Shown here: piece by piece, positions 34,361-64,000 of the stretch
Layout: each line of letters opens with the position of its first letter
Position numbering within the stretch: the stretch's first letter is position 1
Source: Eledone cirrhosa
Lineage: Eukaryota
Direction of reading: 5' to 3'
NCBI GenBank assembly: GCA_964016885.1
Contig: OZ024742.1
Span: forward strand, 64,728,001 to 64,792,000
Length of the DNA: 64,000 nt
Program-made: the position numbers and the translations under genes
Notes under the pieces: generated by a model
What the model was told of the DNA's origin: nothing
Database searches by the model: none
What the model saw: only the letters and a program-made list of their open reading frames with translations

Positions 34361-36097
34361 AAAATATTCTGTGTGAACTTTATTGAGTGAAGAAAACCAT
34401 GAACCTGGAAAGTGAAATTCTCAGTAAGTGCACACATGGTTGTGTGGTTAAGAAGTTTACTTCACAACTCTGTGGTCTCAAGACTGAACTCACTATACAG
34501 CTTTTTAACTAGCACTTTGTGGGTGCGACTTCATAGATGGAAATTAGGGGGAAATTTGTTTGAGGGATTGTTCTTACTCACTTGTGCTTTTGCTGTTTGT
34601 TTACCAAATTTGAACACGTGGTTACCAAACGAACTTCTTGACCACAACAGTGATGGCCACATACAACTACATATTTCGAAATCATGAGATTTTAAAATAA
34701 AATTAATGAACCTTTTCCAGAGAAAGACTTAAAATTAAGGAGCGGGAAGGCGCGGTCTGTTCTTCATACTACCACATAATTTTTTATCAAAAGAAAATCA
34801 CATTTCAGTTATGTGGCCTTGTAGTTATTTTCGAATTGCCCGTCCAGCCTAGTTGTAATCGGTATCGGCAATTGAAAAAAAAAAAAAAAATGGAAACTTT
34901 GTCACTGGGATTCTTCAGTTACTTCCCTTGAAAAAAATTATTTCAGCAGTTGCCTCCCCTAACTGATTGCTTTTTGAAAGTTGTGATAATGAGTGAATTA
35001 TAAACGTTATTCAGGACCGCCTCGAATGAACTGACTTATGCTGGAAAGTATTCCAACTATAACCATCTCGTCTTTTTAGTTGGATGTGTAATGTTAATGT
35101 ACGTGAATGATGAAGAATCAGATGTAGTGTACACGGATGTGTAGTTGATTATCGTTGGGTGAGAAGCACCAGGATTTCTCAGTGAAAGGACGTTGAAGTA
35201 GAGAAAGACCTGGAGAGAAATGGTGAAAGCTAATCTCAGCAAAGGAGATGAGGAAAGAATACAACTATTGGTGGGAAGCTGTGCTGGATAAGACCCATCA
35301 AACTCATGCAAGCGTGATGATGGCGAGGACTAGAAAATTATTCCTTTTTTTTCAAAGATAGTACTCTTTTACTCTTTTACCTGTTTCAGCCATCCGGCTG
35401 AGGCCATGCTGGGGCACCGCCCAGTAGGATGGGATTTTAAAATCATTTAGTTGCTATTTGTACACGCTTTCATGTGTGTGTAGAGAAAGAAGGGTTTCAC
35501 TCATTACATTGCTGCCATCCTGGGGCATTGCCTTCTAGGGAATAAGTCGATCTTATCGACCTCACTACCTATTTTATCGATCTCTATTTGTCGAACCGCT
35601 AAGTTATAGGGGTGTAAACAAACAATAAACATACACATACAGTGTGTATTCAGTATAGAATCAGTATACCATATCTCTGTTAAAAGCAGCAGAAATAGTT
35701 GGTGCTAGGAAGGGCAAAGGGCTGAAAACATTGCCTCAAATAGAATCCTAAAATGAGTATGTAGCTTGTCATGGGACTTGCAAAGTTAATCCCTTAAAGG
35801 AAAAATGATCTCAGAATGTTTGTTGTAGTATGTGCACAAACATGGATATTTTCACTCTGATACATATGATGGGTTTCTAGACTGTTTCCATCTACAAAAT
35901 CTCACTCACAAGGCATTGGTCAACTTGGAGATATAGTAGAATACACTTGTATGAGATTGAACTGAAAACCATCTGGTATATTAATTATAAAATCAAAACT
36001 ATGAAGCCAAAATATAACTATTACCCTTTGTTAAATTAGTTCATGCTGACACGAACCACTACCTCTACCACTGCCATGCTGTTGAAGTTAAATATTG

Positions 36098-37210
36098 TCA
36101 CATGTAACCAGTACTCTCTCCACTGTAACATGTGACCAATACTCTCTCCACTGTAACATGTGACCAGTACTCTCTCCACTGTAACATGTGACCAGTACTC
36201 TCTCCATTGTAACATGTGACCAGTACTCTCTCCACTGTAACATGTGACCAGTACTCTCTCCACTGTAACATGTGACCAATACTCTCTCCACTGTAACATG
36301 TGACCAATACTCTCTCCACTGTAACATGTGACCAATACTCTCTCCACTGTAACATGTGACCAGTACTCTCTCCACTGTAACATGTGACCAGTACTCTCTC
36401 CACTGTAACATGTGACCAGTACTCTCTCCACTGTAACATGTGACCAGTACTCTCTCCACTGTAACATGTGACCAGTACTCTCTCCACTGTAACTTGTGAC
36501 CAGTACTCTCTCCACTGTAACTTGTGACCAGTACTCTCTCCACTGTAACATGTGACCAGTACTCTCTCCACTGTAACGTGACCAGTACTCTCTCCACTGT
36601 AACATGTGACCAGTACTCTCTCCACTGTAACATGTGACCAGTACTCTCTCCACTGTAACATGTGACCAATACTCTCTCCACTAACATGTGACCAATACTC
36701 TCTCCACTGTAACATGTGACCAGTACTCTCTCCACTGTAACATGTGACCAGTACTCTCTCCGCTGTAACATGTGACCAGTACTCTCCCCGCTGTAACATG
36801 TGACCAGTACTCTCTCCGCTGTAACATGTGACCAGTACTCTCTCTGCTGTAACATGTGACCAGTACTCTCTCCGCTGTAACATGTGACCAGTACTCTCTC
36901 CGCTGTAACATGTGACCAGTACTCTCTCCGCTGTAACATGTGAACAGTACTCTCTCCACTGTAACATGTGACCAGTACTCTCTCTCCATTGTAATAAGTG
37001 GTCAGTACTCTCTCTCTCCCCATGTCAACATGTGATCAGTACTCTCCGTGTCAACATGTCAGTACTCTCTCCATGTCAACATGTCAGTACTCTCTCCATT
37101 GTAACATGTGTCCAGTATTCTCTCCATTATAACATGTGGTCAGTACTCTCCATGTCAACATACCAATATTCTCACTGTGACAATGTTGTCAGTACTCTCT
37201 CCATGTCAAC
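36098..37210. repeat. 28-bp minisatellite (ccagtactctctccactgtaacatgtga), about 32 regular units plus a degenerate tail
   Basis: Head-to-tail units without spacers, 36098 to about 36990, decaying to about 37210. Confidence 0.97.
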
Positions 37211-37357
37211 ATCTACACCTATCTTCTATCTATGTTAACTGTGTGTAGAACTGACCTTTCAATTAAGCCACAGGATGATCACCACCACCATTTTACATCT
37301 ATTTTCCATGCTTGCATTGGTTAAACAATTTCACCATTTCCTTTCTCTTATTTTCAG

Positions 37358-37419
37358 TTATTACTACTGAAAAGACTAATATTCTGCTGAGGTATTTACA
37401 CCAACATTGGGACAAAAAG
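37358..37419 (+). CDS. DDA1: DDA1 exon 4 ([21 protein letters not shown])
   Basis: ttttcag| phase-1 acceptor, |gtaatt donor; [18 protein letters not shown] signature. Confidence 0.96.
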
Positions 37420-38277
37420 GTAATTTCTTTTTCTTGTCACTTCTATTCAGTGAAAAAACCCATTGTTTCATTGGATGAACATCTTTCATTTGATTAACAT
37501 CTTATATCTTAATCCTGTAAGAATTAAACAGAAAATGTCTAAAAATGGGTTTGTTAATCAAAATGTTTACAGTATATTTACTTGTAGGCCGACTTTTGCA
37601 AGATGGCAGTATTAACTCTTAACATCCTGTAATGATTTAGTCAAAAATATCTAAAAAGAAGTTTTGTTAATCCAAATATTTGTAGAAATTTCTACTAGAG
37701 ATGAGATTGTGAAAATTTAGAATATCAAAGACTTTACTTTTTAATGTGATGCAGTCATAGGGTGATGGATTAGCAGAATCACTAGTTGCATGCAGTTCTT
37801 TGCATCATTTACTCTTGTTCTTTATGTTCTGATTTCAAATCCTACTGAGGTCAACTTTGCTATACATTCCTCTAGTTAAAATAAGGTACTGGGGTCAATT
37901 TCATTGGCTTTCTTCTTTCCCTAAATTGCTGATCTTGTGCAAAATTAGAAATTATTATTAAAAGTCAATGTAACAGTTACTATTAATAACAAATATTATT
38001 TTTATAAGCTGGTGGATAGGCAGAACCGTTAGACAGTTGGATGAAATGCTTTGTGTCATTTATTCTGGCTCTTTACATTCTGAGTTCAAATCCCACTGAG
38101 GTCAACTTGGCCTTTTATCCCTCCGGTACCAATAAAATACAGTACTGATCAAGAACAAGGTCAATATAAGCCTCTTTCTCCACCACCCCAAAAATTGGTA
38201 GCCTTTTACCTAAATTAGAAATCATTATTTTATTTATTTCTATGTTTATTCATTTCTTTCTTTTTTTTTTTTTTCAG

Positions 38278-45983: not shown

Positions 45984-46872
45984 ATAATAATAATGAAATT
46001 ATTGTGTAAAGTGCTCAGGTGCACGACAACTCGTCAAAGGTGAATGTATAGTACATAGAATAATACACAAATGTCAGGGAAGTGAATAGTGTATGAGTCA
46101 TGATATACGTGTGTATGTGTATGGAGGTCTTAAAGGATGCAGTGTCTCGACAGCTATCAACTGATGCAGGTAGTTTGTTCCATGCTTCAGCAACTCTGAG
46201 CATGAAAAAATGTTTCCGAAAGTCATGGGAACTCTGATCATTGCCAATCTGTCTCTTATAGGCAGTAACAAAAACTACAGCCATCTCCAACCTGCTCACT
46301 TTGACTGGAATAAAGCAGACTGGAACTCTTAGTGCATTGAGCTACACCGTCCTAACTGGCTTGAATTTTACGACTCTGGAGATGTGAATAATATATTTCA
46401 GAACATCCTGAATTCAATATGGACAGCATTTGCAACATCAGTACCATGTCAGCAGAAAAAACATCCCAAAGGTGTAATTTGGGAGATTGCAACAGTCTGA
46501 CTTGCCAGGAAAGAACGTAATGCTGAACGGGAATACAAACTACATATATTAGAGATAGGCAATGCTTGAATTTGAACAGCAAAGTGTTCTGGAAGTATGT
46601 ACATTCAAAGCAGAGATCTCACTCTCCAATTGGTCCTCTTCACAATCCCCACACAGGTCAAATTACTGATGATCCCAAAGAATATACAGAACTTATTGTT
46701 GAATGCTATGCAGGCATTTTTACTGTTGAAAATCAAAACGTACCACCTCTGACATCAAATTCTATAACAACTATGGAATTTACACCTGCAATACTGCAAC
46801 ACCACCTTAAGAATAAGCGCAACTATGCCTCTCATGGTCTTGGTGGTGTTACGTACTTGCTTCTCAAACAAA
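45984..46872. mobile_element. Rearranged CR1 insertion: minus-strand 3' end (45984-46235) fused to a plus-strand upstream ORF2 segment (46236-46872)
   Basis: SSHDFRKHFFMLRVAEAWNKLP on minus; FDWNKADW and KVFWKYV...SITTMEFTPAIL..HLKNKRN on plus, overlapping the start of the 33025 copy. Confidence 0.85.
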
Positions 46873-47618
46873 GATGTGCATGTGAATAGACAAATATATC
46901 AGGTTCTCTATATGTCAATTGAATGTGTGACACATTTTCTGTTTTGTTTTTTTTTGTTTTTGGCAATTAATCAAATCCCAATGACTAATTATATTTTAAT
47001 GTTTACAAATATTTTTCATTATATATTATGCTTCAATTATTTTATAAATTTGCACACCTATTTACAATATCTAATTACTAATGTTAATTATAGGTGTTAA
47101 TTACTATGTACCTGTTTATGAGACCTTTATTAATAATAATTTCTAGCATAAGCACATGGATGGAAATTTTTGGAAAAGGAATATTTGATTAAATTTACCC
47201 CAGTACATGACTGGTACTTTATTTATACCTCAGCAGGATTTGAACTGAGAATGTACAGAGTTAAAAGAAATACCGCAAGGCATTTTGTTCGAGATTCTAA
47301 CGAATCTGCCAAATTCAATTATTTTGAAATAATAAAATAAAATGTGAACATGTAGACAGTGTTATATTTTATTCAAAGATCAGTTTTTAAAAAATGCTTC
47401 CAACAGATTTATAGAGTGAAGCATATTCCTGAGATTAGAAGACAAAACTTAATTTTTCTTTTTGATTTTGCTTTCTTCATTTCAGGAATAAATGGAAAAC
47501 AAATTCTTTTTGAATCAAACAAAAAAAAAAGTCATCTCTTTTGTTCCCTTTACCAAAAAAGATGGATTTTGTAAAACAAAATGGAATATATTTTTTGCTA
47601 ATGAACTGGGCAAGGAAG

Positions 47619-48118
47619 TCAAGGTTTCTCTCCTTGACTTAGTCTTTTGTTAATATCATCAACTACTTTTGGTAAATCAGCTACGGAATCTATAACATAG
47701 TGAGCACCACTGTTGCGTAGAATTGTTCGAGAATTTTCCAAACGCTGATGAAGATCATCTTCCATGAGGGTTGCTTCTTGCTCAAGGCTGTCAATGTTCA
47801 TATAGTTACTATATCTACTAACACCGATACCCCAACAACCAGCTTCCAGTGCCTCAACAACACCGGATGCAGTATCATCAACTTTTATCACAGACTGAAT
47901 AGGGTGGATATCTAAGAGATCCATATTACGGTAAATCATGAATGGTTTAGGACGGCACCCATTGATGACATCATCACCAGCTACTGTTACATCAGGTTTG
48001 AAACCTTGCTTTGCCACATCAACCAAAAGGCTATCTACCATAGAACGAATAAAACCAGTGGTACTGCCTATTTTAATATTGTAGTCAGTTCGAAGTTTTT
48101 GCATCGTCTCTGCTGTTC
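47619..48118 (-). CDS. phnX: Phosphonoacetaldehyde hydrolase, last coding exon
   Basis: cccag|GA completes Gly in phase 1. Motifs IKIGSTTGF, RPKP, KVDDT, AGCWGIGV, GAHYVIDS and the C-terminal INKRLSQGEKP are typical of PhnX. The spliced CDS is 843 nt = 280 aa; AATAAA on the minus strand near 47368-47373. Confidence 0.94.
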
Positions 48119-48139
48119 CTGGGGAAGAAAATTAACAAA

Positions 48140-48770
48140 TGATAAAGTAAATGTTAATAATCATCGTTGGCATTATCAACATTACCAACAATATTTCCAT
48201 CATTATAATTATAATCAGCATTATAATTAGAAACAACATTATTACCATCATTATAATTATAATCAGCATTATCACCATTATAATTTTAATCAACATTATC
48301 ACCATCATTATGTGGATTGGCAGTATCGGTAGAAGGTCAGACGCCATGCTTTCCAGCATAGTTACGTCCCTTTATTATCTGAGTTCAAATCCCGCCAAGG
48401 TTGACTTTGCCTTTCATCCTTACGGGGCCGATAAAATAAAGTACCAGTAATGCACTGGGTAATTGCTGGCCTTGTGCCTAAAGTAGAAACAATTATAATT
48501 ATAATCATCACCACCATCATTATAATCATCATTATCTCCATGATCATCATTATTTTCATTATATTAAATCCATCATTATCCTCACAACCATCATCATCAA
48601 CATCATCTTGATCATTATCATTATAATCAACACTATCATCATCATCAGAATCATTATCATTATAAACATCATCTTGATCATTAACATTATAATCAACATT
48701 ATCACCATCATTATCATCAACATCATTTCTGTCATTATCATTATAAACAACTTCATCATCATCATCATTT
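48140..48770. repeat. Degenerate (ATC/ATT)n trinucleotide tract containing a SINE at 48310-48497
   Basis: Low-complexity sequence giving poly-I/M/D spurious ORFs. Confidence 0.9.
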
Positions 48771-51700
48771 CTGTTTAGTGTCAATTCTTCCATCCTTGTA
48801 TGGGTTAGATGGGTCGTCCATGCCGGGAAGCAAGTCTGGCCATATTTGGTCATGTCGCACCTTGCTCCAGCGAGGACTATAAATTTGGCTGGGTATTTTA
48901 CAGCTTGATGCCCTTCCTAACACCAACTACATTTACAGTGTGGGACTGGATGGCTCTGTTATGAGGGACAGGCCAGTTGGCTGCGCTGAACCCATCTCAC
49001 AATGTAACCTCAGTTTTAGAGCCTGACCCCTCTCACAGCATAGCCACCATTTTGGGGAGCCTGGCGTCGGATGACACCACTATGCGAAGAGGCCAGTTGG
49101 AACCCAGTACTGGATGGCACCGATACGAGGAGCCTAAACCCATCTCACAGAGTAGCCACAGTTTTGTGGCCCAGTATCAGATGGCATCGCCATGAGGAGG
49201 GATAGGGCTGTTGGCCACGCCGAACCCATCTCACAGCATAACCATAGTTTAGGGGCTCAATACTGGTACAACATTATCTTCATCATTATCAACACCATCT
49301 CCATCATGATTATCATCATCAAAACTCATTATTAACATATCAATCATTATTATTATCAACATTATTCCCACAAAAATCACTACCATTTTCATCATTACCA
49401 ACAGCACTATTGTCAACATAGTCACTGCAGCAATTCATATAATTGTCATTTTAATCATTACCACCACCATCATCCCCATAACTACCACCACCATCACTAT
49501 AATCACCCCCTCACCTTCAACACCATCATCACAATGATAATGTTGATGATAGTGTAATCATAGATTTATTATGTCTGAAACAAAACAACAGGATGGTCAT
49601 AGCAGGAACACACTTGACCACAGGCCTGCTAATGAAAGTTGAACTGGAGCTACATAAAATTTTGCATCATCCCTACACCACCACCACCACTACTGTGTCA
49701 CCATATTTATACCATAAACCCTTTCATTAACATATTTCTAATGAAAGACATTGCCTATGATTTTCAAATCATTAAGAATTTGGAAAGATTTAGTAATATA
49801 ACTTTCTCATTATAATAATGAAATTATTGTGTACAGTGCTCAGGTGGTTTTGGAACATAAAGATTCTTTCATAAAATTATGATCGAATGTTTTTAGATAA
49901 ATATAAACACTTTGAAATATTCAGTTTTGTATCATTGAAGAAAAGGTAGTTTCAAGCAGTTTGGTTCCAAAATAACATCCCCACCTGTTTGCACCATCAT
50001 CATCATCATCATCATCATTATTTTTTCACTCATTTTTCCATGCTCACATAGATTAGATGACTTCTTTCCAGTACAATGTCACACCACTTGTCTTTTTCCT
50101 TTATGAGGTTCATCCTCTTCAGATCAGCTTTTACCATTTCTGTCCAGGTCTTCTTCAGACTACCTCTGCCACAGTGATCCTTTACTTGTTTCTTTCCTCA
50201 CCCTCATGAGATCAACTTTCATCTCTACTACCCAGGACTTTCTTGGCCTACCTCTACCACATCTTCCTTCCACTTAGAATCACTGGTACTTTCCCCAACT
50301 GCCATCATTCATTTGTATCTCATATCCATACCAGTGCAGTTTTCTTTCTTGCACACTGCATTTGATTCCTTTTATATTCAGTTTTACTCTCAAATCATCT
50401 GTGCTTCAGCGTTTATGCACATTAACATTACACATCCAGTGGAGTATGCTCGAATCATGTTTTTTTTTGTTTTTTGTAACTTCCACATATCCTCTGCATT
50501 TAATGCCCGTCTCACTGCCATGCCACATTGCACATCTCATGCAGGTTTCATACAATCTACCCTTTGTTTGGAGAAAGGACTCCTTTGTTACTAATAGAAA
50601 TAGTGCCCCCACCACTGAATTTTTTCCACTTTGTTCCTACTGTGGCTACTATTCTTTTAGAGGAACCTCTGCCACTACTAATTAGATCACATAGGTAACA
50701 GAAACTATTTATCAGTTTTAATTAGTGATGTTAATTACTAATGTTAACATGCATGAGACCATAATTAAAAGTAAATTACTAACAATTGGTCACATCTGTT
50801 TATGTGTACAATAATAAAGTTGGCAGTTTACATATATTTCGTTTTACAGGATTTCCGTTTATTAGACTGCAGCCATGCTGGAGCATCACCTTCAAGGGTT
50901 TCAGTTCATCATACTGACCCTAGTAATCATTTCATGAATCTGTATTTCACAAATTGCTAAGTTACCTACTGGCAACTCTGTATATCTTGTGTGATATGTT
51001 TCTACATCTGTAATGCTCTGTTTCAAGGCACATGCCTAAATAAGGCATTTTGTGTGGAAGATCAGCAGTCATCCATATAATAATAATAATGAAAATTATT
51101 GTGTACAGTGCTCAGATGCACAACAACTCATCAAAGATGCATAAGCAAGTGTCCTCTCACCACACCACCAATGTTGTCCCAAGAAAAGGAAAGTACTGAT
51201 ATAGCTTGGTGCAAGGTGATCTCATAACATAAAGGGACGATTGATAGTGCAAAGCATCAGGTAACAATGATGCCAATCAACTGCCCTGGACTAGTACTTT
51301 ATTTATCAATCCCAAAAGGAATTAAGGAAAATTCGAACTTGGAACAAATATTATGAGGTATTTAATCCAATGCTTTTAGAACTAACATGGTCATTTGGTA
51401 ACAAAAGGTTTAAAGTGTTTATCATCATTATTATCATCATCAATTTTACGTCTGCTTTTCCATGCTTGCATAGGTTGGATGGGCCCTCTTCAGCACAACA
51501 TCACTCCACTCGTCGTGTTCCTAAAAAAACCTTCTGTCATAATTTCATTTAAGAAGCTTTGTTAAGTTATGTTCTAAATACCAGATAACTAGACCTAATA
51601 AACCACCTTGTTTAACAATACCAACAGCTCCTTCAATGATTGACCTAACATGCTACCATGTTTAACAATACCAACTGGTCTTTGGGTGGTAGACCTAATA

Positions 51701-52831
51701 CACGACACTGTTTAACACCTGACCCTTGGGTAATAGACATAATATGCCACCCTGCTTAACTCCACCACCTGTACCCAAGATAACTTTAGTAATGTTCAAA
51801 GCAGAGTCTGTTTAGTTTACTTACATACGTGTTTTTACATCAGAGTAGAGAGGACTTTCCAGTCTGGTGAAGCATTCAACTTCCCTAGTGAGGTGCCATG
51901 TACTCTGTAAAGTAGTGGTAGTGGTACTGGTGCCACAATAAAATAAACGCAATCAACTCTAAAGTGGTAGTGTTGGTGTCATGAAAAATGCACCCAGTAC
52001 ACTCTGTAAAGTGATAGTGCTGATATCACAATAAAATGCACCCACTACACCATATAAGATTTTGATGTTAGAAAGGGTGTCCAATCATAAAAACCATGCT
52101 AAATATGAAACATGAACAAGATGATATCTCTCTGACCTGTCTAGTCTTGGACTGTGACAACCCATCCAACCCATGCCAGTATGGAAAGCAGACATAACAT
52201 GATGATAATGTTCACAATGGACAAGGGTCCTATCAATCTCACCAGTTTTGGAGAAGGTGATGGAGCCATCCTCCCACTGACTAACTCTCACAACACCATA
52301 CCATTTTCTACCCCCTTCATTAGCTCTGATGACATCATATCATTCCATCCCCTCCCTCCATCATTGGCTGTAATGACATCATATCATTGCTTCCCCCTCC
52401 TCCCCATCATTGGCTTTAATGACATCATACCATCAACCAGACAAAGCAGTTAAATTATACATGTTGCACTTTCACTACATACTACTACCTTCTGTGTGGC
52501 AGTGGTGTTGGTGTTGGTGGTGGTAGTGTTGGTGATAGTGATGATGGTATTGATGATATTGATGGTGGCAATGGTAGTAGCAGTAGTGTTCATAGGGACC
52601 ACTTCTATTATGAAATTAATGTGCAAGTGGCTGAGCATTCCACAGACACATGTACCCTTAGTGTATGGGTACAACTAATTTTTGCCAGCTGTGTGGATTG
52701 GGTGTATTGTGAAATAAAGTATGCTGCTCAAAGAAACAACATGTCACCAGGAATCAAACTCATGTCCTCATTCATGACCATCAGATAAACACCTGAACTA
52801 CTAAGCCATATTATAGAATGTAAAACAGCAA

Positions 52832-53932
52832 TCTATACATATATATAAAACTGTAGTTGTCTGTGTGTCCTCATCTTTGCAAAGTCTATACAAATCCACA
52901 TTTCTACTCCGATTGACTTCAAACTTGCATTTATATATTCCTTGTTGTCTAAAGATATTAACTGCAGCTTTTATTTTTCAATTTTCTGTTGTTAAAGGGG
53001 TGTTAGGCGCTGGTTATCAATCTCCATCGCACCCTTATAATATCTGTCTGTCTGCATTACGACATTATGACAAATATTGATGACGTATTATGTTCGCTAT
53101 TTTTCGTTCATTGCCAAGGAACGTCTTCCTGTTTTTCTTCGGTTGCAACGTTTTTCGAAATATTTACTTCTGCGTTCACAGATTGATTTTTTTAGTTTCA
53201 GAAGATCTCGTTAAAGGTGAAAGCAGCGATTCTTTGCTTAAACTTTAATCTGTTATTTTAATATATAATATAAGCGAGGCAAGCCAGCCCAGTTGCCACT
53301 TCTTGCCAATAAACATTAACCCTTTGTGCGGCATTCATCTTACTGTAGACCAACAAATACCAACAGATACCAACTAAATGGAGCGTTCACAAGAACGATG
53401 GCGAATGAATCTTTGAGGTAAGCAGTTTCCTCCCGAGCTGTTAGTTCATGCGGGATTCTCTGCTACACCTTTTTGTAATAATACTGAACAACGTACTTCT
53501 GGTCATTCCTTCCTCCAAAAGCCGTACAAAGTGGACATGTGCATCGGGCAGATGGATCGGGTGCAAATCTACACCAGGCCTACACGAGAAATTCGCAAGG
53601 GACTGCACCGAGAGGGATAGAGAGAAAGAGTAACTTAGTGGAAAGAGTGCAAATGAACTTTTGAGGTAAGTAGCCTACGCCTTACTGCTATTGCACTGGA
53701 ACCTTCTGCCAACTTAACCTGTGACTTTCTCTTTCACATTTACTCCATTTCTATGAACAATGCACGTAGACAGCTAAACTGTACTTTCAACTTCTTAATT
53801 TTCTCCAAATAAAACAAGTTTCCTGTCGGTATATTTTCGTGAGTTTTTAACAGGCACTCACAAATAAACATTTCTCATTGGCGGTGCTATTACCAATGTT
53901 CTTACCCGTGCAACGCCGGGATACACTGCTAG
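52832..53932 (+). mobile_element. Non-autonomous Helitron-like element in the phosphonatase intron
   Basis: 5' a|TCtatacatatatataaaa; 3' hairpin cccgtgcaacgccggg (53905-53920) then CTAG|t; A/T insertion site, no TSD; CpG-richer interior. Confidence 0.7.
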
Positions 53933-54313
53933 TCTATATATAAATTTGAACAACGTCCGTCTGTCACAATGTGTGTGTATGTTTGTGTGAATGTATGTGT
54001 GTAAAAGGAAGGAAAGTGGATGATGAAAAGCTATAGCAAAACAGCAGCTGGCGTTCCATTTGCTATGCTGTGTGTGAGTGTATGCATATGTGTCTGTTTG
54101 TATAAATGTATGTGTGTGTTTATGTAAATGTATGTGTGTGTTTGTGTGAATGTATGTCTGTAAGTGTGTCTGTGTTTGCGTGTTTATATTTATATACTCA
54201 TACATATAAATGTATGCATATACACACGCACATATACACGCTTTAGAGTGGGGAAAAAATCCTAGTATAGGGAAATAGCTAGAGTAAAATATTTGAACCT
54301 GGTTCAAACTTAC

Positions 54314-54656
54314 CTGGCAGTAGCTGGCTATACTTGGAAAGAACACTTAGCTGTAGAGGCACAAAGTCTTCATACATTTTCCTTACATCCGACTGATCAG
54401 GGAACCTTCCATGAATAGTCTTCCATCTTTGTCTCACATCTTCATTTTCTGTTAATTTTTGTATATGTGCATCTTTCCTTAATCCCATTGGCTCACGTGC
54501 TTCTGTCATCGATATAGGAACCCCATGTTTCTGGAAAACTTCAACAAATGCTATAGCTGGTGCCATAACATAACGGTCAACAGTTGTGCCAGACCAGTCT
54601 AGTATAATAGCTTTCACAGCACCAGTGTACTGCCGTATAAATCTGTAACTATTCAT
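54314..54656 (-). CDS. phnX: Phosphonoacetaldehyde hydrolase (phosphonatase, HAD superfamily), first visible coding exon
   Basis: AIILDWSGTTVD (HAD motif I) and EAREPMGLRKDAH (phosphonatase cap loop with Schiff-base Lys). Acceptor ttccag| immediately upstream, exon starts 54661; G|gtaagt donor after 54314. Confidence 0.93.
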
Positions 54657-55989
54657 AGTTTCTGGAAAAGGAAAATAAATACAAATTTAGCATCAGCCAT
54701 AATATTATGCCATGTGTTTGTATATATGTATATATATATATATTAAAATAAGAGATTAAAGTTTAAACAAAGAATTACTGCTTTCACCCTTAACGGGATC
54801 TTCTGAAACGATTCTTTGCTTAAACTTTAATCTGTTATTTTAATAAATATTTGTTCTATGATTTTAAATTTGTTGATATATATATTATCCTTATCAAGCC
54901 ATCTTCGGATTTTAGTCTTCATATTTATTGTTATTACTATGGATTGGCAGCATCGGTAGAGGGTCGGACGCCATGCTTTGACGCATAGAGTTACGGTCTT
55001 TGCCATTCTGAGTTCAAATCCCGCCGAGGTTAACTTTGCCTTTCATCCTTACGGGGTCGATAAAATAAAGTACCAGTAATGCACTGGATAATTGCTGGCC
55101 TTGTGCCAAAAAGTAGAAACAATTACTATATATATATATATATATGTATGTATGTAAAAGGTAAACAGAAATAACACAATCGGTACAGTATATGGAAGGT
55201 ATATATTAGGTTAACGCTTGATATAGCAGGAAATGGTCTTAACGTTTAGGGTGCTAGTCCTTCATCAGAAGAAAGAATGAGAAATAAAATAGATTAAGGG
55301 GTCGGGCGGGATGGAATTTGAAAAAATGTCTTTGGATAAAAATAATAGGTCCATTCAAGTTGACATCTCTTGCAAAACTGTTGGTGCTGGCGTTTTGTGT
55401 ACACACACATATATATAATTGTTTCTACTTTCTACAAGGCCAGCAATTATCCCAGTGCATTACTGGTGCTTTATTTTATCGACCCCTTAAGGATGAAAAG
55501 CAAAGTTAACCTCAGTGGGATTTGAACTCAGATCGTAAAGGGGCGTAATTCTATGCTGCAAAGCATGATGTCCGACCTTCTATCGATACTGCCAATCCAC
55601 CGCCCTTTATATATAATGTCAGTAACTTTTTAATATTTACACACCCATACTAACATTCACACAATACTTCAATAAAGGGTTTAACCCGAAATGTCAGATC
55701 CATTCCTTTTCTTTTGATGTAAATATCTTCATTGTTCACATTTTTTACGTCTTGTTTCACCTTTTGTTTACCTTGTTTTAACTTCTTGTGTTCTATTTGT
55801 CTGTTCCTTCTTCTACCTTAATTTACTTCTATTTGTATGATTTTTACCTTTATATATATATATATCGTAATATTGGGGTTTTCCAATATAGATCCTGGTA
55901 AAGATGAGAGGAGTGAGATTGTAGGCAGACTAACAAAAAAAGTAAACTTTGTATGTGAAATGCAAAGAAGTAGTTAGTAGTAAAAGCTA

Positions 55990-56625
55990 TGGTGAAATCT
56001 TCTAAAGGTTCCATAGAAGTGGTTGATAGCTTCTGCTACCAGGTGACTTAATTAGCAGTGGAAAGCAGAGGTTGCTTTGAAAGCATAGTAGCTAGAACAA
56101 AGTCAGGCTGGATAAACTTCGTAGAGCTACTATCTGTGTGGTCAACAAAAGTCTTCTCTCTATAAATGAAAGATCAGCTGTATGATACCTGTGTGCAATG
56201 TACAAAAATGCATAAAAATGAAACGAGCAATAATTACAGAGATGGGAAAGATGGAAGAAAATGAAGTGAGCATACTTTGATGGATGTGTGATGTTGATGT
56301 GCATGATTGGCAAAGCATGGATAGACTGAGAGAGAAATGGAGTGTAAGAGGAATGAAATATAGTGTGTAGGAGAGATGATGCACTCGTATGACCATGTGA
56401 TGACTGTTTGGTGAAGAAGTACCAAGAGTTTCCAGTGAAAAGAAGCTGCAGAGGAGGAAAACCAAGGAAAACATAAACAGAAGAGGTGAGGGCAGATTTC
56501 AAAACACTGAACCTCACAGAGATGATAAAGGAATGCAATGAGTGGAGAGAAACTGTGTTGGAGAGGATCCATTAGCCCCATACTTGCATGGAGAAATGAA
56601 CATAAAAAGAATGATTTTAATGATG
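55990..56625 (+). mobile_element. Old degenerate RTE LINE 3' fragment
   Basis: GSIEVVDSFCY and downstream similarity to 12646-13250; similar relics at about 35080-35320, 42800-43180, 50020-50480 and inside the inverted duplication. Confidence 0.7.
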
Positions 56626-57319
56626 AGATATGTATATATCATAGTCATCTGTATTTGCGGCCTTCTCTTATTAGGTCAATGTTAATCTCAGGATTAAAAA
56701 ATCTTATTAGCATGTGAGTGGGGAGAGGGCTCTCATTCAATGTAGAGAATATTATATATATAGTCTCATAACATGACAACCTGTCTACCGCATGCAAGCA
56801 AGGAAAATACTTCTTAAATGATGATGATGATACATATATATGTATATGTGTTAATAAAGAATTGATTACACATGTATCGGTACAGACATAATAAACAATA
56901 AGAGGTATGGCTATTAATTAATATTAAAATAGCACAGTACCCATAAAAAAATGGGAGAATATATAGTATATATATATTTAGTTAAATAATTGTTTCTACT
57001 TTAGGCACAAGGCCAACAATTATCCCAGTGTATTACTGGTACTTTATTTTATCGACCCCGTAAGGATGAAAGGCAAAGTTAACCTCAGCAGGATTTGAAC
57101 TCAGACCATAAAGGGCCGTAACTCTATGCTGCAAAGCATGGCGTCCGACCCTCTATCGATACTGCCAATCCACCGCACCATTCAATGTGAAAACACTTGA
57201 ATCCTTGAGTTTTCCTTGAACTTTGAAAAAGTCAATCTGCTTTTTCCTTCTTCTTGGTAGTAGCAGTATTAATAGTAATGATGGTAGTGTAAACATCATC
57301 AGTATTTAAAGGCTCAAAA

Positions 57320-57353
<34 letters not shown>

Positions 57354-57589
57354 GGTGGTGGTGGTGGTGGTGGTGGTGCTGCTGCTGCTGCTAAGAACTC
57401 TTGTCTTTCTTCATAACATTACAACTTTCTAGACACAGAAAGTGGTTGTCATGAGATCATGTGCTTTATCATAAAATGCACAATTTATATAATAAATATG
57501 ATTTACAAAAGAAACAAATCACAAGAAATGAGTCAAAAAGGTGTACACTGAATTACATATTACAACAGGGAATGTTGATGTTTCCCTCT

Positions 57590-57790
57590 GTGTCAGAAAG
57601 ACCGAGTCTAGGGCTACCTTCCTACTCACCACCATAGGCGCTGATCTGGCTAGCCCCAGGTGTGAGTCTCATGAGATGGAATGGCTCTTCCAGCGCATCA
57701 CCCTCACCATCCTTCGGGGAAACAACTCTATTCTGTCTGCCAGGGTCATGGAGCAGCCAGCATGTGGGACCCCATTTGTTCATAATAGTG
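57590..57790 (+). mobile_element. C-terminal fragment of a CRE-like element, opposite orientation
   Basis: WLFQRITLTILRGN resembles the FQR.S.A.QRGN C-terminal motif of this clade. Confidence 0.55.
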
Positions 57791-58376
57791 AGAGATGGAG
57801 GCGATGACAGTGGGATCTGGTGAATGTGTGTATGTGTATGTTTACTTCTGTTCAGTCTATAAAATATATGTGCAAACATATACAGTACATAGATTAGAAA
57901 TATTAATTTTATTTATTATTATCATATATATAGTTCACATGATTATGAATACAAATAAATACAATTTATATAATGAAAAAAGTGTGATAGAAGACACACT
58001 TAACCAAACATTACAACAATGGGTGCTGGAGTTTCTCCCCGACATTTTTCTAAAGAAAACCCAAGACACTCACAGCTAAGATCCTGGAATGATTAAAAAA
58101 AATGGAAGGTGTTCCAAAAAATCAGATCCATAATAAAAACCCTACCGGACAATACCCCACCCCACTAAATAATATCCTCACCCTATCAGGTAATATGCTC
58201 ACCCTATCAGACAATATCCCTATCCTACTTGACAATATCTCTACATAGTAAAAAATAACACAGAACTTGAATATCTAGTTTTAATTTGTTCTTAAAATAC
58301 AAGGAATTACCAGCAAAAAATGTTGTCAGCCTGTAGCATTCAAGACTTTTGTAGGAGCTGGGCTGCTCCTGGTGGG

Positions 58377-58614
58377 TGTGCTTAGTTATTCCAGTTTTAG
58401 CCTTGCCATCTCTTGGCCTAGCTGACATATCAGGCAATGCTTCTGGTGTATGAGCTTAGTTATTCCAGTTTTAGCCTTGCCATCTCTTGGCCTAGCTGAC
58501 ATATCAAGCAATGCTTCTGGTGTATGAGCTTGGTTATTCCAGTTTTAGCCTTGCCATCTCTTGGCCTAGCTGACATATCAAGCAATGCTGCTGGTTGGTG
58601 AGCTTGGTTATTCT
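58377..58614. repeat. 74-bp tandem repeat, 3 copies plus a partial
   Basis: Unit starts at 58381, 58455, 58529, 58603. Confidence 0.92.
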
Positions 58615-59220
58615 AGTGTCTTCCGTTTGGCAACGGAAGCAGTAACCCCAACATTTACCGTGGCGTCCATGATGTGGGAGGGAGCAAAAGAGTCACTGAC
58701 TCTGGCATCCCAGATGACACACCTACCTTTTACCCAGGGACAAAGGGTAAGGCCATCTGGTCTCTTCTCATCACTTCTGTATAATCCCACCAACTCCAGA
58801 ACTGAGGGGATATTTACCTGAGCTATGGCCCGCTTAATGATCAGGTTTAGCTTGGTGTGTGGGGGACGAAACGACCAGCATTCAGGCGGCAGGACAAACC
58901 ATGTAAGCCTGTGGAGTCGAGGGACCTACCACAGTGACATCTCAAACCCCAACAGACATCGGCTCTCACTCAAAGTGCTATGGAGATGCAGAGCTCGTTC
59001 TGACTGAGAAGACCACCAATGTTAGCCACAGGCAGGGCATCAATCCAGTCCTCCGACAACTTTGCGCTTGCAGAAAGTAAGCGGCACCTAGAAAATTGAC
59101 CGAGATGATTAAAAAGAGAGTTAAAAATTTCCCTCAAACGTAGATTGTCGCATACTCTCTGTTTCCGCCTATCCTCATCAGTAACGGGAACTGGCAATCC
59201 CAGCTCTCTCCACTGTAATA
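58600..59220 (-). mobile_element. Relic of a restriction-like-endonuclease (CRE-like) non-LTR retrotransposon
   Basis: DWIDALP..IG..LSQNELCISIAL, HGLSC zinc-knuckle remnant, KRPDGLTLCPW...WDARVSD (PD..D motif). Confidence 0.7.
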
Positions 59221-60278
59221 AAGCTTGTATTTTATTTATTCGATTCAAGAGCAAAGTTAACTTTGGCAGTATTTAGACTCGGAATGTAAAAGTTTATTCT
59301 TTATCAGGTAAATGACATTTCATTATTTAGCTTTAAATATTATAAACAGATTTAGTTTTATCTATTACTATTTTGATATTTTAGTGTCAAATGGGGTTTT
59401 GTCCATATCTCAAAATTCACGCAAGGATGGAAATTTCACTACAAATACAAAAATAGTTCCATAGGTAAAAATAATTGTTTCTACGTTAGGCACAAGGCCA
59501 GCAATTACCCAGTGCATTACTGAAACATAATAATAATAATTAAGGTGCGGGGTTTGAAAAATGTAATTTTGCATTAGTAATGAAATGTTCATTGTTGCAA
59601 ACTTAAAATAATAATATCACTTTAAAAACACGTGAATTAGGAAAAAAATAAAGTAACATCATTCATTTAAATTAGAAATAAGCCAAACGAAAATGATTCG
59701 TTTCAGTAACTATCTCTTTGTTTTATAGTCCCGATTACGCACGTATTCAGCAGGATTTTACACATACACATACACACACATATGTTAGGTGCGTGCATGC
59801 ATGTAAGGGCTGTCTGTAATCATGAGACGGATAAACTGTACTTTTAACTATAAAAAAGGCCATGCCATATCACAGTGTCACGCTGGTTCTCTCAGAAAAT
59901 TACATTAAGGATACACGTGTCTGTGGAATAATCACCCACTTACACTATAATAAAATGAGCAGGTAGTCAGTAAATATTCAAGTGTTTGTGTAATACTCAA
60001 CCACTTTATGATAAGAGTGAATAGTTATTTAGAAGATATATATGTTTGTGGATGCACTATAATTCAAGGAGCAGGTAGTTATGTATGTCTGTATGTGAGG
60101 AGTGTGTATATATATATGTGTGCGTGCGCGTATGTTACATTAAAAGAACAAGTGCTTGTGGAATACTCAGCCCCAAACACTAATTTAATTCGATAGTTCG
60201 GTTGATCGAACATCGGAATCTTCATCGTCGAAACTGATGAAAGACCTATTTACTTTCATTTATGTTAGTGGGTATGAA

Positions 60279-60314
<36 letters not shown>

Positions 60315-60315
60315 C

Positions 60316-60405
<90 letters not shown>

Positions 60406-60410
<5 letters not shown>

Positions 60411-60946
60411 AACGAGTAGGACCCCGAGGGCTGAGCTCAAGCCGTTTCGACAGCTAATTCTGGACTAAATGAACATTTTTTTTATCCTGGTATATGAATA
60501 GCCGAGCTTCTCAGGGGGTAATTCCATATATGGTAAAAGTGATTGTCACAAGGATTGGTCAAAAGTTTGTTGTTGAGACACAATTCTATCATGGCAATTT
60601 GTAGAATGAAGGGGTAGCTGAACTTGCCAGTAGAAGAAAGAGGGAGAGGGAGAGGGAGTGGAGGAAACCCAGTTGTGCGTTGATAGTGCCAACTACCCTG
60701 CTGTAGTTGGCACTATCAACACACTGGTAGGTTCAGCTACCCCTTCCTTCCACAAATTGCCATGATAGAATTATGTGTCTCAACAACAAACTTTTGACCA
60801 ATCCTTGTAAGAATCACTTTTACCATATATGGAATTACCCCCTGAGAAGATCGGCTATTCATATACCAGGATAAACATTTTCATTTAGTCCAGAATTACC
60901 GTCGAAACGGCTTGAGCTCAGCCGTCGGGGTCCTACTCGTTCCTAT
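60406..60946. repeat. ~540-bp palindromic element next to (TA)n
   Basis: Arms of about 225 bp plus a perfect inner 18-bp hairpin (60679-60696 / 60703-60720, 6-nt loop); terminal fragment repeated at 63657-63688. Confidence 0.93.
60837..60931 (+). ncRNA. Type I hammerhead-like motif with variant core (CUGAGAA) and long stem II insert
   Basis: Stem I acccc/ggggt; core CTGAGAA; stem II ga(t)cgg/ccgtc; GAAA; stem III cggct/agccg around palindromic tgagctca; GUC triplet (cut after 60926). Mirror copy on the minus strand at about 60421-60520. Confidence 0.6.
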
Positions 60947-61022
60947 TACCCACTCTACTACCCTAAGTATTGAGTAATTTGGTGCGTTATGGTCCACCTG
61001 GTTCCTTACCACATTTCCTTCG

Positions 61023-61145
<123 letters not shown>

Positions 61146-61460
61146 GAGAGAGAGAGAGAAGATGAAACTGGAAATAGCACGGAAAATATATTTTAGGGTG
61201 TTTTTCTTTTTTTCTTTTTCTTTCTTTGATTCGTCAAAGTGACATTATTGAAAAAATGAGAGGGGCAATTCTTTTTAAAAAGAGTTTTGTAATGTATATA
61301 AAGTATTACCGGTTTCGATGTAATAGTAAAATTTTAATCTTAACCATATGTGTATATACGTGTGTATACACATACAAACAACTGTGAATATATATATATA
61401 TATATATATTATACGTGTTATATGTATGTGTATACGCATACATATAACCACCATCAAGAA

Positions 61461-62052
61461 AGCCAGCAAATATAAACTTGTTTACATATGTGAAGGAATT
61501 TATGAATGGAACAACGAAATAGCTTGTATCAATGTCTTAACAACGTGCGTATATTTACTATTTACTATATATAGATGTATAAATGAATGGACACCCACGA
61601 TTTAATTCATATAGAAATGACATGCAGGACTAAAACTGTTTCATTAGTCTGAAATCATCTGGGCATTCCTGGTGATTTCAAACAAATGAAACAGTTCTGG
61701 AGCTGTAGAAGCCACCTGTATCTGAAATATACAATGTACCTTCTCTATTTAATGATGGTCTTTTTCTGTTCTCCGACCACCACCACAGCCAGCAAATATA
61801 ATCTTGTTTACATGGAATTTATGAATGGAACAACGAAATAGAATGTAAGAATGTCTTAACAACGTGTGTTTATTTACTATGTATAAATGAATGCATTCAC
61901 ACGATTTATTTCATATAGAAATGAAATACAGGACTAAAACTGCTCCATTAATCATTCAGTCTTTCCTGGTGATTTCAAACGAACGAAACAGTTCTGGCCA
62001 TGTAGAAGCCACCTGTATTTGAAATATACAATGTACCTTCTCTATTTAATGG
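61461..62052. repeat. Diverged direct duplication of about 270-295 bp
   Basis: 61461-61755 versus 61787-62052, both starting agccagcaaatataa and ending aatgtaccttctctatttaat. Confidence 0.9.
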
Positions 62053-62678
62053 TTTGAGTACCTTATTTAATAATTGTTTCTACTTTTCACAAGGCCAGCA
62101 ATTATTTCAGTGCATTACTGGTACTTTATTTTATCGACCCTGTAAGGATGAAAGGCAAAGTTAACGTCGGCGGGATTTGAACTCAGAATGGCAAGGGCCG
62201 TAACTCTATGCGTCAAAACATGGTGTCCGATCCTCTACTGATACTGCCAATCCCCTTTTTTTGTTCTTCAGAAAACCATTCTTCATTATATACATATATA
62301 TATGTGTATGTGTGAGTATGTGAATGTGTATAAAAGTAATAACAAAAATAACAAAACAAAGGCACAATACATAGAATATATTAGTTTAACGCTTGAGGTG
62401 AAGATGAGGTTGGAGAGATGTAGGTAGGATTGTAAAGTTCCAGAGAATGTATACATTTTTGGGGGACACCGTGTGTGTGTGTATATATATATATTAGAAA
62501 GTTAGGTTTTTTTTACAAAATGAAAAAAAAACGAGTGAAAGTATAAGGAAAAAAGATGAAATTGAAAATGCAATTCTACTTTTGAAAAGCACAAGAACTG
62601 CGAAACCGGTAAAAGAACCAAATAAATATATTTATTTTAAAAAAAGACTCCAGTTGCATTTTCGATTTCATCTTTTTT

Positions 62679-62731
<53 letters not shown>

Positions 62732-62839
62732 TGTATGTATGTATATATATATATATATATGTGTGTGTGTATGTGTATAACATTGCCCAGTCAATAGATA
62801 GTGACATTATAAATTTACTTATCACCGCCAACAATGTTT

Positions 62840-63089
<250 letters not shown>

Positions 63090-63685
63090 GAAACCACTGG
63101 TAAATGGAATAATTGCCTTATGTTGTTTATTACATAACTATATATATATATATATATAAATGAAACCACTGGTAAATGGAATAATTGCCTTATGTTGTTT
63201 ATTACATAACTATATGTATATATATATATATATATATGCGTGTTTGTGTGTGTTAACAGTGTTATATATTATGTATGAACAACGTGAATAATGTTGCGCG
63301 CGTGTATATATATATATATAATAACAATGAAAATGATTGTAATAAGGCTTACACAATAATTTCGTGTAAGCAATGTGTGAGCAATGAAGAAAATCATCAG
63401 TGGTTGTTACACAATACTCACGGTGACGTTGAAATCATCAGTGGTTGTTACACAATACTCACGGTGATGTTGAAAGGTAACGGAAGAATATATAAGAGTG
63501 GTTTGTGTGAAGAGTGAGAGAGAGACTAAATACCAAACCAACAACAATAACTACAAATATAGATCTCGGTCAGCAGCCAGGAGTTAATGTAAACAACACA
63601 CATGCGTAAACAAACACACACATAACGCGTGTACACGCACACACACACATATATATAGCTCAGCTGTCGGGGTCTTACTTGTTCC

Positions 63686-63730
<45 letters not shown>

Positions 63731-64000
63731 GTTTTCCAGGGTCATAGGATTGTCATGAGATATACATTTGTGTGTATATATATGTATGTGTGTGAGTATG
63801 TATGTGTTTGTGTGTGTTTATTTGTATGTGAGTATATATGTATGTATATTTAGTGAAGGCGCGTGGCTTAGCAGTTAGAAAATAGGATTCGCAATCGGGA
63901 GGCTGCAGGTTCTCTGACCGGATGATGCGTCATGTCCTTGAGCAAGACATTGTATTTTACGCTGTGACTGGTAGATAGTATTAGCAATGGAATGTCCAAC

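Follow-up and report, generated by a model that had tools for sequence, protein, structure and literature searches.

The gene on the minus strand at 47619-54661 of the window (the whole 64,000-nt stretch of Eledone cirrhosa DNA that was analysed, C3:64,728,001-64,792,000) is a host-encoded, spliced phosphonatase (PhnX) with intact catalytic residues. The reading we favour, to which we give a probability of roughly two in three, is that this single gene supplies the predicted last step in the turnover of 2-aminoethylphosphonate (AEP), and that the lineage it belongs to probably took the place of the original animal PhnX in an early ancestor of molluscs and brachiopods. A spliced octopus PhnX is already known through the annotation of Octopus genomes; the unexpected part is a split of animal PhnX into two lineages, referred to below as A and B. 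The features of the gene are as follows.

54662 to 54700, minus strand: pyrimidine tract and AG acceptor of an upstream intron, whose 5' exon of at least 75 nt is located outside 46500-56500.
54314 to 54661, minus strand: start-codon exon, opening at the splice acceptor; residues 1-114 plus one base, with D20 of motif I and M57, K61 and H64 of the cap loop.
48119 to 54313, minus strand: intron of 6195 nt, phase-1 GT-AG, with simple and high-copy repeats inside.
47619 to 48118, minus strand: last coding exon, residues 115-280 and the stop; T135, R170 and D195-D196-x3-G200.
47368 to 47618, minus strand: probable 3' UTR; the first AATAAA is at 47373-47368, and the spliced contig extends to 47544.

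Recomputed from the sequence, the structure was the one given in the preliminary description, two exons joined over the phase-1 intron into a spliced frame of 843 nt and 280 aa with one stop, a TGA in the last exon. The exon borders of the span 47619-54661 stood, but 54661 is not the start codon, since the ATG is at 54656; 54661 is the first base after the upstream acceptor (TTTTCCTTTTCCAG/AAACTATG). The coding part of the start-codon exon runs from 54656 to 54314 (343 nt, phase 1), and the intron borders read CCAG/GTAAGT ... TTCTTCCCCAG/G. Alternative in-frame acceptors for the last exon, at 48112 and 48109, exist on paper only. Pattern searches for the upstream exon over 54662-64000 and 30 kb further gave nothing convincing.

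Splicing over the predicted 54314/48118 junction was borne out by contig 18 (998 nt) of run X4, which spans it exactly and aligns with 0 differences to 47544-48117 and 54313-54661; the offset of one base from 48118/54314 is due to a G on both sides. The contig extends 75 bases 5' of 54661, and the absence of these bases from 46500-56500 implies at least one further 5' exon. The library type of X4 is not on record, so its RNA origin is deduced from the spliced form. Among the datasets listed as carrying the sequence none bore an RNA label, a result without weight for expression. Contigs of runs X1 and X3 were continuous across both intron borders, as expected of genomic DNA. X4 and X1-X3 belong to one study, so the evidence for splicing and the assembly may share a source.

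The window lies in a 379-Mb contig of a 3.0-Gb genome. It contains a LINE reverse transcriptase at 12649-13812 and, on the plus strand, a DDA1 exon at 37297-37479 (PF10172, 33.9 bits vs a cut-off of 24), which makes DDA1 and the minus-strand PhnX convergent genes; both PhnX exons are flanked by high-copy repeats, as judged by depth. Together with the spliced contig, these features uphold the earlier view of the gene as host-embedded, convergent with DDA1 and no contaminant. Bacterial contamination or a dead insertion has a negligible probability. No point was counted in its favour, and it is refuted by the spliced contig in X4 and by the orthologues named in three Octopus species on contigs of 98-119 Mb; the size of the host contig and the intact frame also stand against it.

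The two exons, scanned separately, cover complementary parts of the TIGR01422 profile (positions 1-101 at 123 bits and 104-251 at 156 bits), in agreement with the family first proposed. Octopus orthologues 86-88% identical to the protein reach 296-299 bits against the cut-off of 220, and the score on TIGR03351 is far below its cut-off. A Pfam search with each exon separately returned no match, and the ESM Atlas gave the family name and nothing further. A third TIGR01422 match, on C17 (E 7e-6), is a generic HAD hydrolase and not PhnX. PhnX is single copy in this genome.

In an alignment with Bacillus cereus chains, gap-free over residues 14-111, D12, M49, K53 and H56 correspond to D20, M57, K61 and H64; T126, R160 and D186 correspond to T135, R170 and D196, which belong to motifs II and III and to motif IV, where the Asp binds metal. 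The residues and motifs listed in the preliminary description (D20, M57, K61, H64, STTG at 133, RPKP at 170, KVDDT at 193 and RLSQGEKP at 273) were all at the positions it gave. Asp12, Lys53 and His56 are described as catalytic in B. cereus phosphonatase (PMC11203657). The protein agrees with that enzyme of the bacterial PhnW-PhnX system (PDB 1FEZ, 1RQL, 2IOF; EC 3.11.1.1; TIGR01422) in its catalytic D, K, H, T, R and D and, as predicted from sequence, in its domain layout, a HAD core with a C1 cap; the sequence of the O. sinensis orthologue matched solved structures over its full length (E 1e-60 to 1e-52). Four active-site exchanges relative to B. cereus were found, A14S, C22V, G185D and D190G, so that motif IV reads DD-x-x-x-G vs GD-x-x-x-D. 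In the B. cereus enzyme C22S or G185D is reported to reduce activity (PMC11203657). The DD-x-x-x-G form is common to all 12 A and B proteins compared and to a Vibrio protein, and both G185D and D190G also occur in PDB 3IRU and in animal clade B proteins.

By analogy with the B. cereus enzyme, K61 would form a Schiff base with the substrate aldehyde, aided by H64 and M57. The cap would then close over the core, the phosphoryl group would pass to D20 while held by T135, R170 and Mg2+ at D196, and water would free the phosphate. The predicted reaction, phosphonoacetaldehyde to acetaldehyde and phosphate, would end the animal's own AEP turnover, in which AEP from phosphonolipids, phosphonoglycans or the diet would be transaminated by a PhnW-type enzyme (C2) and then cleaved by PhnX.

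The partner genes that had been suggested, a PhnW-like transaminase and a PEP mutase, are both in the genome, and so is a phosphonopyruvate decarboxylase. The transaminase is one open frame at C2:196,044,550-196,045,626 (TIGR02326, 450 bits vs a cut-off of 400.8), a likeness to the bacterial PhnW-PhnX pathway. Profile searches gave 5 exon matches for the mutase on C28 and 6 for the decarboxylase on C2. Transaminase and decarboxylase are approximately 64 kb apart on one strand of C2; a fusion of the two was ruled out, the transaminase frame closing with a stop. Operon-type adjacency of phnW and phnX (C2 vs C3) is absent, as expected in an animal. Unlike the bacterial system, octopus PhnX is spliced, has neither operon nor linked transporter, and has genes of AEP synthesis alongside. 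With only 19 residues ahead of motif I it is probably cytosolic, as judged from the sequence; the transaminase is longer by about 45 residues at its N-terminus, and these, by eye, resemble a mitochondrial presequence. PhnX-like and PhnW-like proteins have both been detected in snail haemocyte proteomes (PMC6281880).

In the synthetic direction, PEP mutase and the decarboxylase would yield the same aldehyde, so PhnX must be separated from synthesis by tissue, timing or compartment. A phosphonatase whose main job is clean-up or flux control, removing excess reactive phosphonoacetaldehyde from AEP synthesis, would fit the presence of these two genes and a PhnX on C3 unlinked to the C2 transaminase, which is itself close to the decarboxylase; a carnivore is also unlikely to be short of phosphate. 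We consider this distinctly unlikely as the main role, as ceramide aminoethylphosphonate, given as a main membrane sphingolipid of molluscs and 29 mol% in mussel haemocytes (PMC9174665), must yield much AEP on turnover, and phnW and AEP/phosphonate transporters adjoin phnX in the closest bacterial relatives. Such a role is compatible with the main phosphonatase reading.

The PhnX gene as such is ordinary among invertebrates, and the rarity implied by the preliminary description has to be given up. The Octopus orthologues, identical at 86-88% over 280 aa, are already named in RefSeq/GenBank for three species (O. sinensis XP_036361193.1 and XP_029640286.1, O. bimaculoides XP_052826159.1, O. vulgaris CAI9726784.1). 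These models differ in coming from other octopod species and their names are automatic annotation; annotated isoforms vary at the N-terminus, consistent with an upstream exon. Beyond octopuses, named PhnX entries exist for other molluscs and a brachiopod as well as for sponges, cnidarians, deuterostomes and arthropods, and animal PhnX features in published work on corals, rotifers and a snail (PMC4878875, PMC3499245, PMC6281880, bioRxiv 10.64898/2026.05.06.723128).

The gene departs from the species tree: the lineage present in molluscs and a brachiopod is not that of the other named animals. In a careful ML tree of 39 chosen rows, mollusc and brachiopod PhnX fell together with genes of giant viruses and of a rare clade of marine bacteria (clade A, 100/99), the other named animals were separate (clade B, 98/94), and A and B were sisters vs ordinary bacterial PhnX (100/96). 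The A/B split was repeated in trees of 403, 84 and 79 rows, the last a quick mixture tree with five long-branched rows left out. A single clade of all named animals was rejected (p-AU 0.0049), as was one of all bacteria (0.0059), for groups chosen after the trees had been seen; the lophotrochozoan sequences did not come out as one clade, a grouping that was not rejected (p 0.44). Within A, bacteria as sister to the other A rows and bacteria with the lophotrochozoans were both accepted, and for that reason animal-to-bacterium transfer is not claimed. The nesting of marine bacteria inside molluscs, seen in a first FastTree, failed later.

Clades A and B differ by two one-residue indels and three motifs (DWSGT, PMGLRKD and YSNY in A; DWAGT, PMGxHK and KTGNY in B). 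Clade B includes Dysidea, Corticium, Acropora, Hydra, Branchiostoma, Saccoglossus, Patiria, Limulus, Strigamia and decapods, and shares the family and the catalytic residues of octopus PhnX. Among the matches listed in an A-type homologue search (best 120 of 1959), 120/120 were A-type, and all 10 species-named animals were molluscs or Lingula. Among those listed in a B-type search (best 120 of 7238), 116/120 were B-type and none A-type, and molluscs or Lingula made up 0 of 26 species-named animals; most rows of both lists bore no species name, and the sampling was without labelled annelid, flatworm, nemertean, rotifer or choanoflagellate sequence. Searches of this one octopus genome found no B-type gene; in the same genome, profile searches picked up single exons of other genes down to 32-70 profile positions.

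The grouping of mollusc PhnX with genes of giant viruses and marine bacteria points to a probable, long-past displacement of the animals' original gene. Judged from these comparisons, the gene's history is best read as ancient retention on which an old horizontal replacement was superimposed. Of the earlier choice between horizontal acquisition and ancient patchy retention, that much stands; recent transfer does not, there being orthologues across invertebrates. A recent passage from a bacterium to the octopus, or into cephalopods only, is very improbable. Marine bacterial proteins are 62-66% identical to the octopus protein, about as close as other molluscs (59-67%), and one quick tree put cephalopods near the bacterial clade (91 SH-aLRT, not starred). 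However, it is already largely refuted by the A-type genes, apparently orthologous, of chiton, bivalves, gastropods and Lingula, and by the careful tree, which sets the octopus with molluscs and viruses and outside the bacteria; a lophotrochozoan clade that was not rejected and an exon border shared with two more distant relatives (P0003, P0129) also argue against it.

Under the old replacement, the gene would have been acquired from outside the animals, whether from a protist, a giant virus or a marine bacterium, before the mollusc-brachiopod split and would then have displaced the older copy, introns being gained later at different sites in different lineages. Hidden paralogy is a less likely alternative. 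A and B would be pre-animal paralogues of the same enzyme, molluscs and brachiopods having kept A and lost B and other animals the reverse, with viruses and marine bacteria taking A from eukaryotes and no transfer into animals. The sister relation of A and B is also what an old duplication within eukaryotes would give; much of the non-mollusc part of clade A consists of giant-virus or unlabelled eukaryote-looking sequence; and in bacteria the A type is rare, with 2/401 sampled genomes of one phylum, centre included, against 30 with the ordinary type. Against this, paralogy requires that sponges, cnidarians, deuterostomes and arthropods each lost A independently, and among the matches listed no named animal beyond molluscs and Lingula had A. 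Clade A is also shallow, most rows being 49-67% identical to the octopus protein and mollusc proteins no more distant from bacteria than from each other, and the A-type genes of animals do not seem to share their intron positions, a weak point drawn from fragments. Ancient replacement is the likelier of the two on sequence comparison.

More tentatively, and with odds we put low, molluscs and brachiopods may have exchanged their ancestral PhnX for a foreign one traded among giant viruses, protists and marine bacteria, the bacterial A type coming from the eukaryote or virus side, and invertebrates may close the AEP cycle without microbes. If so, part of ocean bacterial phosphonate breakdown would use a gene of eukaryotic origin. 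A scan of viral contigs with P0093 found nothing. The bacterial A-type phnX genes concerned belong to AEP operons in SAR324, planctomycetes and proteobacteria.

C-P bond cleavage is usually attributed to microbes (PMC3266647). Should the octopus enzyme prove active, four of a mollusc's own genes would cover both the synthesis and the breakdown of phosphonates. The literature searched, with subscription journals outside its coverage, held no assay of any animal PhnX; activity could be tested directly on an intronless 280-aa coding sequence, with K61 and D20 as controls. In work on coral PhnX and PhnW, a host-encoded and expressed PhnX is proposed to break down AEP, and gene transfer is proposed as well (bioRxiv 10.64898/2026.05.06.723128; PMC4878875). 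Cnidarian PhnX belongs to clade B, is 46-51% identical to that of the octopus, has 74-80 residues ahead of motif I, and groups with sponges and bilaterians in trees without labelled dinoflagellate sequence. A legend of the coral preprint separates corals from 'other Metazoa', and its main text makes no mention of molluscs (bioRxiv 10.64898/2026.05.06.723128); Shoguchi et al. cover coral AEP synthesis and, in the parts accessible, never mention phosphonatase (PMC3640398). Bdelloid rotifer transcripts for an AEP transaminase and phosphonoacetaldehyde hydrolase have been read as a horizontally acquired two-step catabolism (PMC3499245). The two-lineage pattern, on which a literature search for giant-virus PhnX or lophotrochozoan PhnX transfer found nothing, bears on the transfer claims for both corals and rotifers. 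Octopus PhnX shares no more than about 36-42% identity with PhnX from cultured bacteria; viral, bacterial and animal A-type sequences are about 60-65% identical to one another, so phnX counted as bacterial in ocean metagenomes can be viral or animal.

The phosphonoacetaldehyde hydrolase (PhnX, phosphonatase) gene lies on the minus strand of the window, and its translated exons give a frame of 280 codons without an internal stop. The preliminary description had joined two exons through a 6195-nt GT-AG intron into an uninterrupted ORF of 280 aa; the exon junction and the frame were reproduced, and every residue and motif was found where it had been placed.

54656 (ATG) to 54314, minus strand, first coding exon, 343 coding bases
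Between 54314 and 48118, minus strand, GT-AG intron, 6195 nt
48118-47619 (ends TGA), minus strand, last coding exon, 500 bases
37297-37479, plus strand, DDA1 exon, PF10172 match
About 38287, plus strand, second DDA1 exon, motif only

A 998-nt contig from sequencing run X4 aligns to 47544-48117 and 54313-54661 with 0 differences, and its junction is the predicted one, with a one-base ambiguity. Both intron borders are crossed unspliced in runs X1 and X3. The library type of X4 is unrecorded and its study is shared with X1-X3, so we infer its RNA origin, and it is to this extent that the exact spliced contig bears out the proposed 54314/48118 junction. Its final 75 bases find no match in the 10 kb compared and a splice acceptor immediately precedes 54661; the gene therefore has a further 5' exon. 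Bacterial contamination, already argued against, is excluded by the spliced contig, by the window's position in a 379-Mb contig of a 3.0-Gb genome, and by the DDA1 neighbour, whose exon is convergent with PhnX.

The assignment to the PhnX family also held. The exons match complementary segments of the TIGR01422 profile at 123 and 156 bits, and full-length relatives 86-88% identical to the octopus protein score 296-299 bits (cut-off 220 bits). Protein identity places the animal among the octopods. Alignment to solved chains gave the same equivalents of Bacillus cereus Asp12, Met49, Lys53 and His56 as first proposed, ie D20, M57, K61 and H64, and placed Thr126, Arg160 and Asp186 at T135, R170 and D196. 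Compared to the B. cereus enzyme, octopus PhnX has A14S, C22V, G185D and D190G; C22S or G185D lowers the activity of the bacterial protein, according to PMC11203657. The DD-x-x-x-G form is common to a Vibrio protein and to all 12 of the 12 aligned proteins from clade A (mollusc/brachiopod, giant-virus and marine-bacterial PhnX) and clade B (PhnX of other named animals). PhnX is single-copy in this genome, searches with the family profile and with a protein of clade B having returned the window's gene alone, besides one generic HAD hydrolase. Judged from its sequence, the gene is a real, conserved, predicted phosphonatase, probably active. It adds one member to a known family; in relatives the gene has already been annotated.

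The rarity of animal PhnX implied initially was not borne out. RefSeq or GenBank already lists orthologues from O. sinensis, O. bimaculoides and O. vulgaris under the name phosphonoacetaldehyde hydrolase. Among the best 120 of 1959 matches to the last exon, the species-named animals (n = 10) were cephalopod, chiton, bivalves, gastropods and Lingula, and other searches found PhnX in Ruditapes, Bulinus and Gigantopelta. A profile built from five proteins at greater distance gave 7238 matches, of which the best 120 included 26 species-named animals, from sponges, cnidarians, hemichordates, echinoderms, amphioxus and arthropods. In print are coral PhnX, listed among candidates for transfer (PMC4878875) and described, with PhnW, as an expressed pair degrading 2-aminoethylphosphonate (AEP) (bioRxiv 10.64898/2026.05.06.723128), rotifer transcripts (PMC3499245) and snail proteins (PMC6281880). 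Given the named orthologues, the wide invertebrate matches and these published cases, animal PhnX as such is not a discovery.

The unexpected result is that animal PhnX falls into two lineages. Octopus PhnX shares 62-66% identity with proteins of marine bacteria and 45-53% with PhnX of non-lophotrochozoan animals, and the A/B split was identical in four trees (403, 84, 79 and 39 rows). The careful tree was built from 39 rows chosen by hand. Its clade A comprises 8 lophotrochozoans, 7 bacteria, 4 giant-virus genes and 4 unlabelled rows (support 100/99); 11 rows from sponges, cnidarians, deuterostomes and arthropods make up clade B (98/94). For groups chosen after the trees were inspected, AU tests rejected a single clade of all named animals (p-AU 0.0049) and of all bacteria (p-AU 0.0059), and did not reject a single lophotrochozoan clade (p 0.44). 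The clades also differ in three motifs and in two indels of one residue each. No two-lineage history was found in the literature searched; by its legend, though, a figure of the coral preprint sets corals apart from 'other Metazoa'. Within clade B, cnidarian PhnX (P0516, P0521, P0526, P0527, P0568, P0517, P0550) groups with proteins of sponges and bilaterians. This placement, in a tree without a labelled dinoflagellate, is in some tension with the transfer that the preprint proposes, from Symbiodiniaceae into the coral ancestor.

We favour, by roughly two to one, displacement of the ancestral animal PhnX by an A-type gene in an early mollusc/brachiopod ancestor, for which one gain and one loss suffice; most matches behind this estimate have no species name, and the trees include neither annelids, flatworms nor rotifers, nor any labelled protist. 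Hidden paralogy, ie A and B as old duplicates with differential loss, agrees with their sister position but requires several losses of A. Unlabelled fragments suggest that exon borders fall near residue 115, residue 161 or about residue 67 depending on the animal, and that some animals have none. Such variation is what arrival of an intronless gene would predict, but it is a weak indication.

Bacterial A-type PhnX genes are genuine: in two named genomes they adjoin phnW and phosphonate transporters, and 33 of 80 metagenome loci, many with short flanks, have a PhnW-like gene nearby. They are also rare: a sample of 401 genomes from one phylum, centre genome included, had 2 with the A type and 30 with the ordinary 36-42% type, and in one order they account for 6 full-length matches and one partial of 151. 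The viral genes are likewise real. At L020 (177-3850) two NCLDV major capsid genes immediately precede A-type PhnX, and an A32 ATPase lies close by; at 7 of 17 viral loci PhnX is 48-60% identical, and phnW was found near none of the 17. Tree tests singled out no branching order inside clade A, so neither donor nor direction of transfer can be named.

Yasminevirus also carries PhnX. On two giant-virus contigs, L018 (5004-5846, 8575-9213) and L019 (2270-3118, 4002-4616, 4589-5554), a ceramidase gene is found less than 3 kb from PhnX, and the pair could be a viral module degrading ceramide aminoethylphosphonate; L019 also has a gene of the endonuclease/exonuclease/phosphatase fold. On L036 (2074-4825), a 33% GC metagenome contig, the gene order is PhnW-like aminotransferase, unknown gene, PhnX, with a class I tRNA synthetase adjoining. 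As its PhnX is placed outside the bacterial clade, L036 is possibly a virus with both steps. A second, divergent PhnX-like set on viral contigs (L025-L034) is 29-34% identical to the octopus protein.

The pathway partners suggested at the outset, a PhnW-like transaminase and PEP mutase, were both found in this genome, the counts below being separate exon matches, not assembled gene models, for decarboxylase and mutase.

Contig C2, from 196,044,550, PhnW-type transaminase (L002), single open frame, 450 bits (cut-off 400.8)
Contig C2, ending 196,142,542, same strand as transaminase, phosphonopyruvate decarboxylase (L008-L013), six exon matches
Contig C28:98,777,037-98,811,946, minus strand, PEP mutase (L003-L007), five exon matches in profile order

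The decarboxylase matches begin approximately 64 kb downstream of the transaminase on the same strand, and the interval G000:C2:196,044,550-196,142,542 may hold a linked animal phosphonate-synthesis pair. Matches are thus present for all three steps of AEP synthesis, as named in passages of PMC3640398, and for the catabolic step. Ceramide aminoethylphosphonate is described as a main mollusc sphingolipid (PMC9174665), and a role for PhnX in AEP turnover is likely. AEP would be converted to phosphonoacetaldehyde and then to acetaldehyde and phosphate, with cleavage presumably through the Schiff-base and aspartyl-phosphate chemistry of bacterial phosphonatase (PMC3266647). Since synthesis shares phosphonoacetaldehyde with breakdown, the two would have to be kept apart. 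Octopus PhnX has 19 residues ahead of motif I and the transaminase approximately 45 extra residues, basic and hydroxyl-rich, which by eye suggests cytosolic PhnX and a mitochondrial transaminase. Helisoma snail embryos reportedly turn egg phosphonate to phosphate, in a report of 1980. A figure of 95% phosphonate is given for Helisoma eggs in PMC6429109.

Elsewhere in the window, a short minus-strand exon, from 17245 downwards, opens with MSDSDFMCDDDEEY, presumably the first residues of COP9 signalosome subunit 2; a Pfam search of this exon gave no match. The stretch 36036-37035, open in several frames, is a long tandem array and not a gene. Two LINE remnants were also recorded.

12646-13812, minus strand, LINE reverse transcriptase remnant, Pfam
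32021-33067, minus strand, LINE reverse transcriptase remnant, by eye
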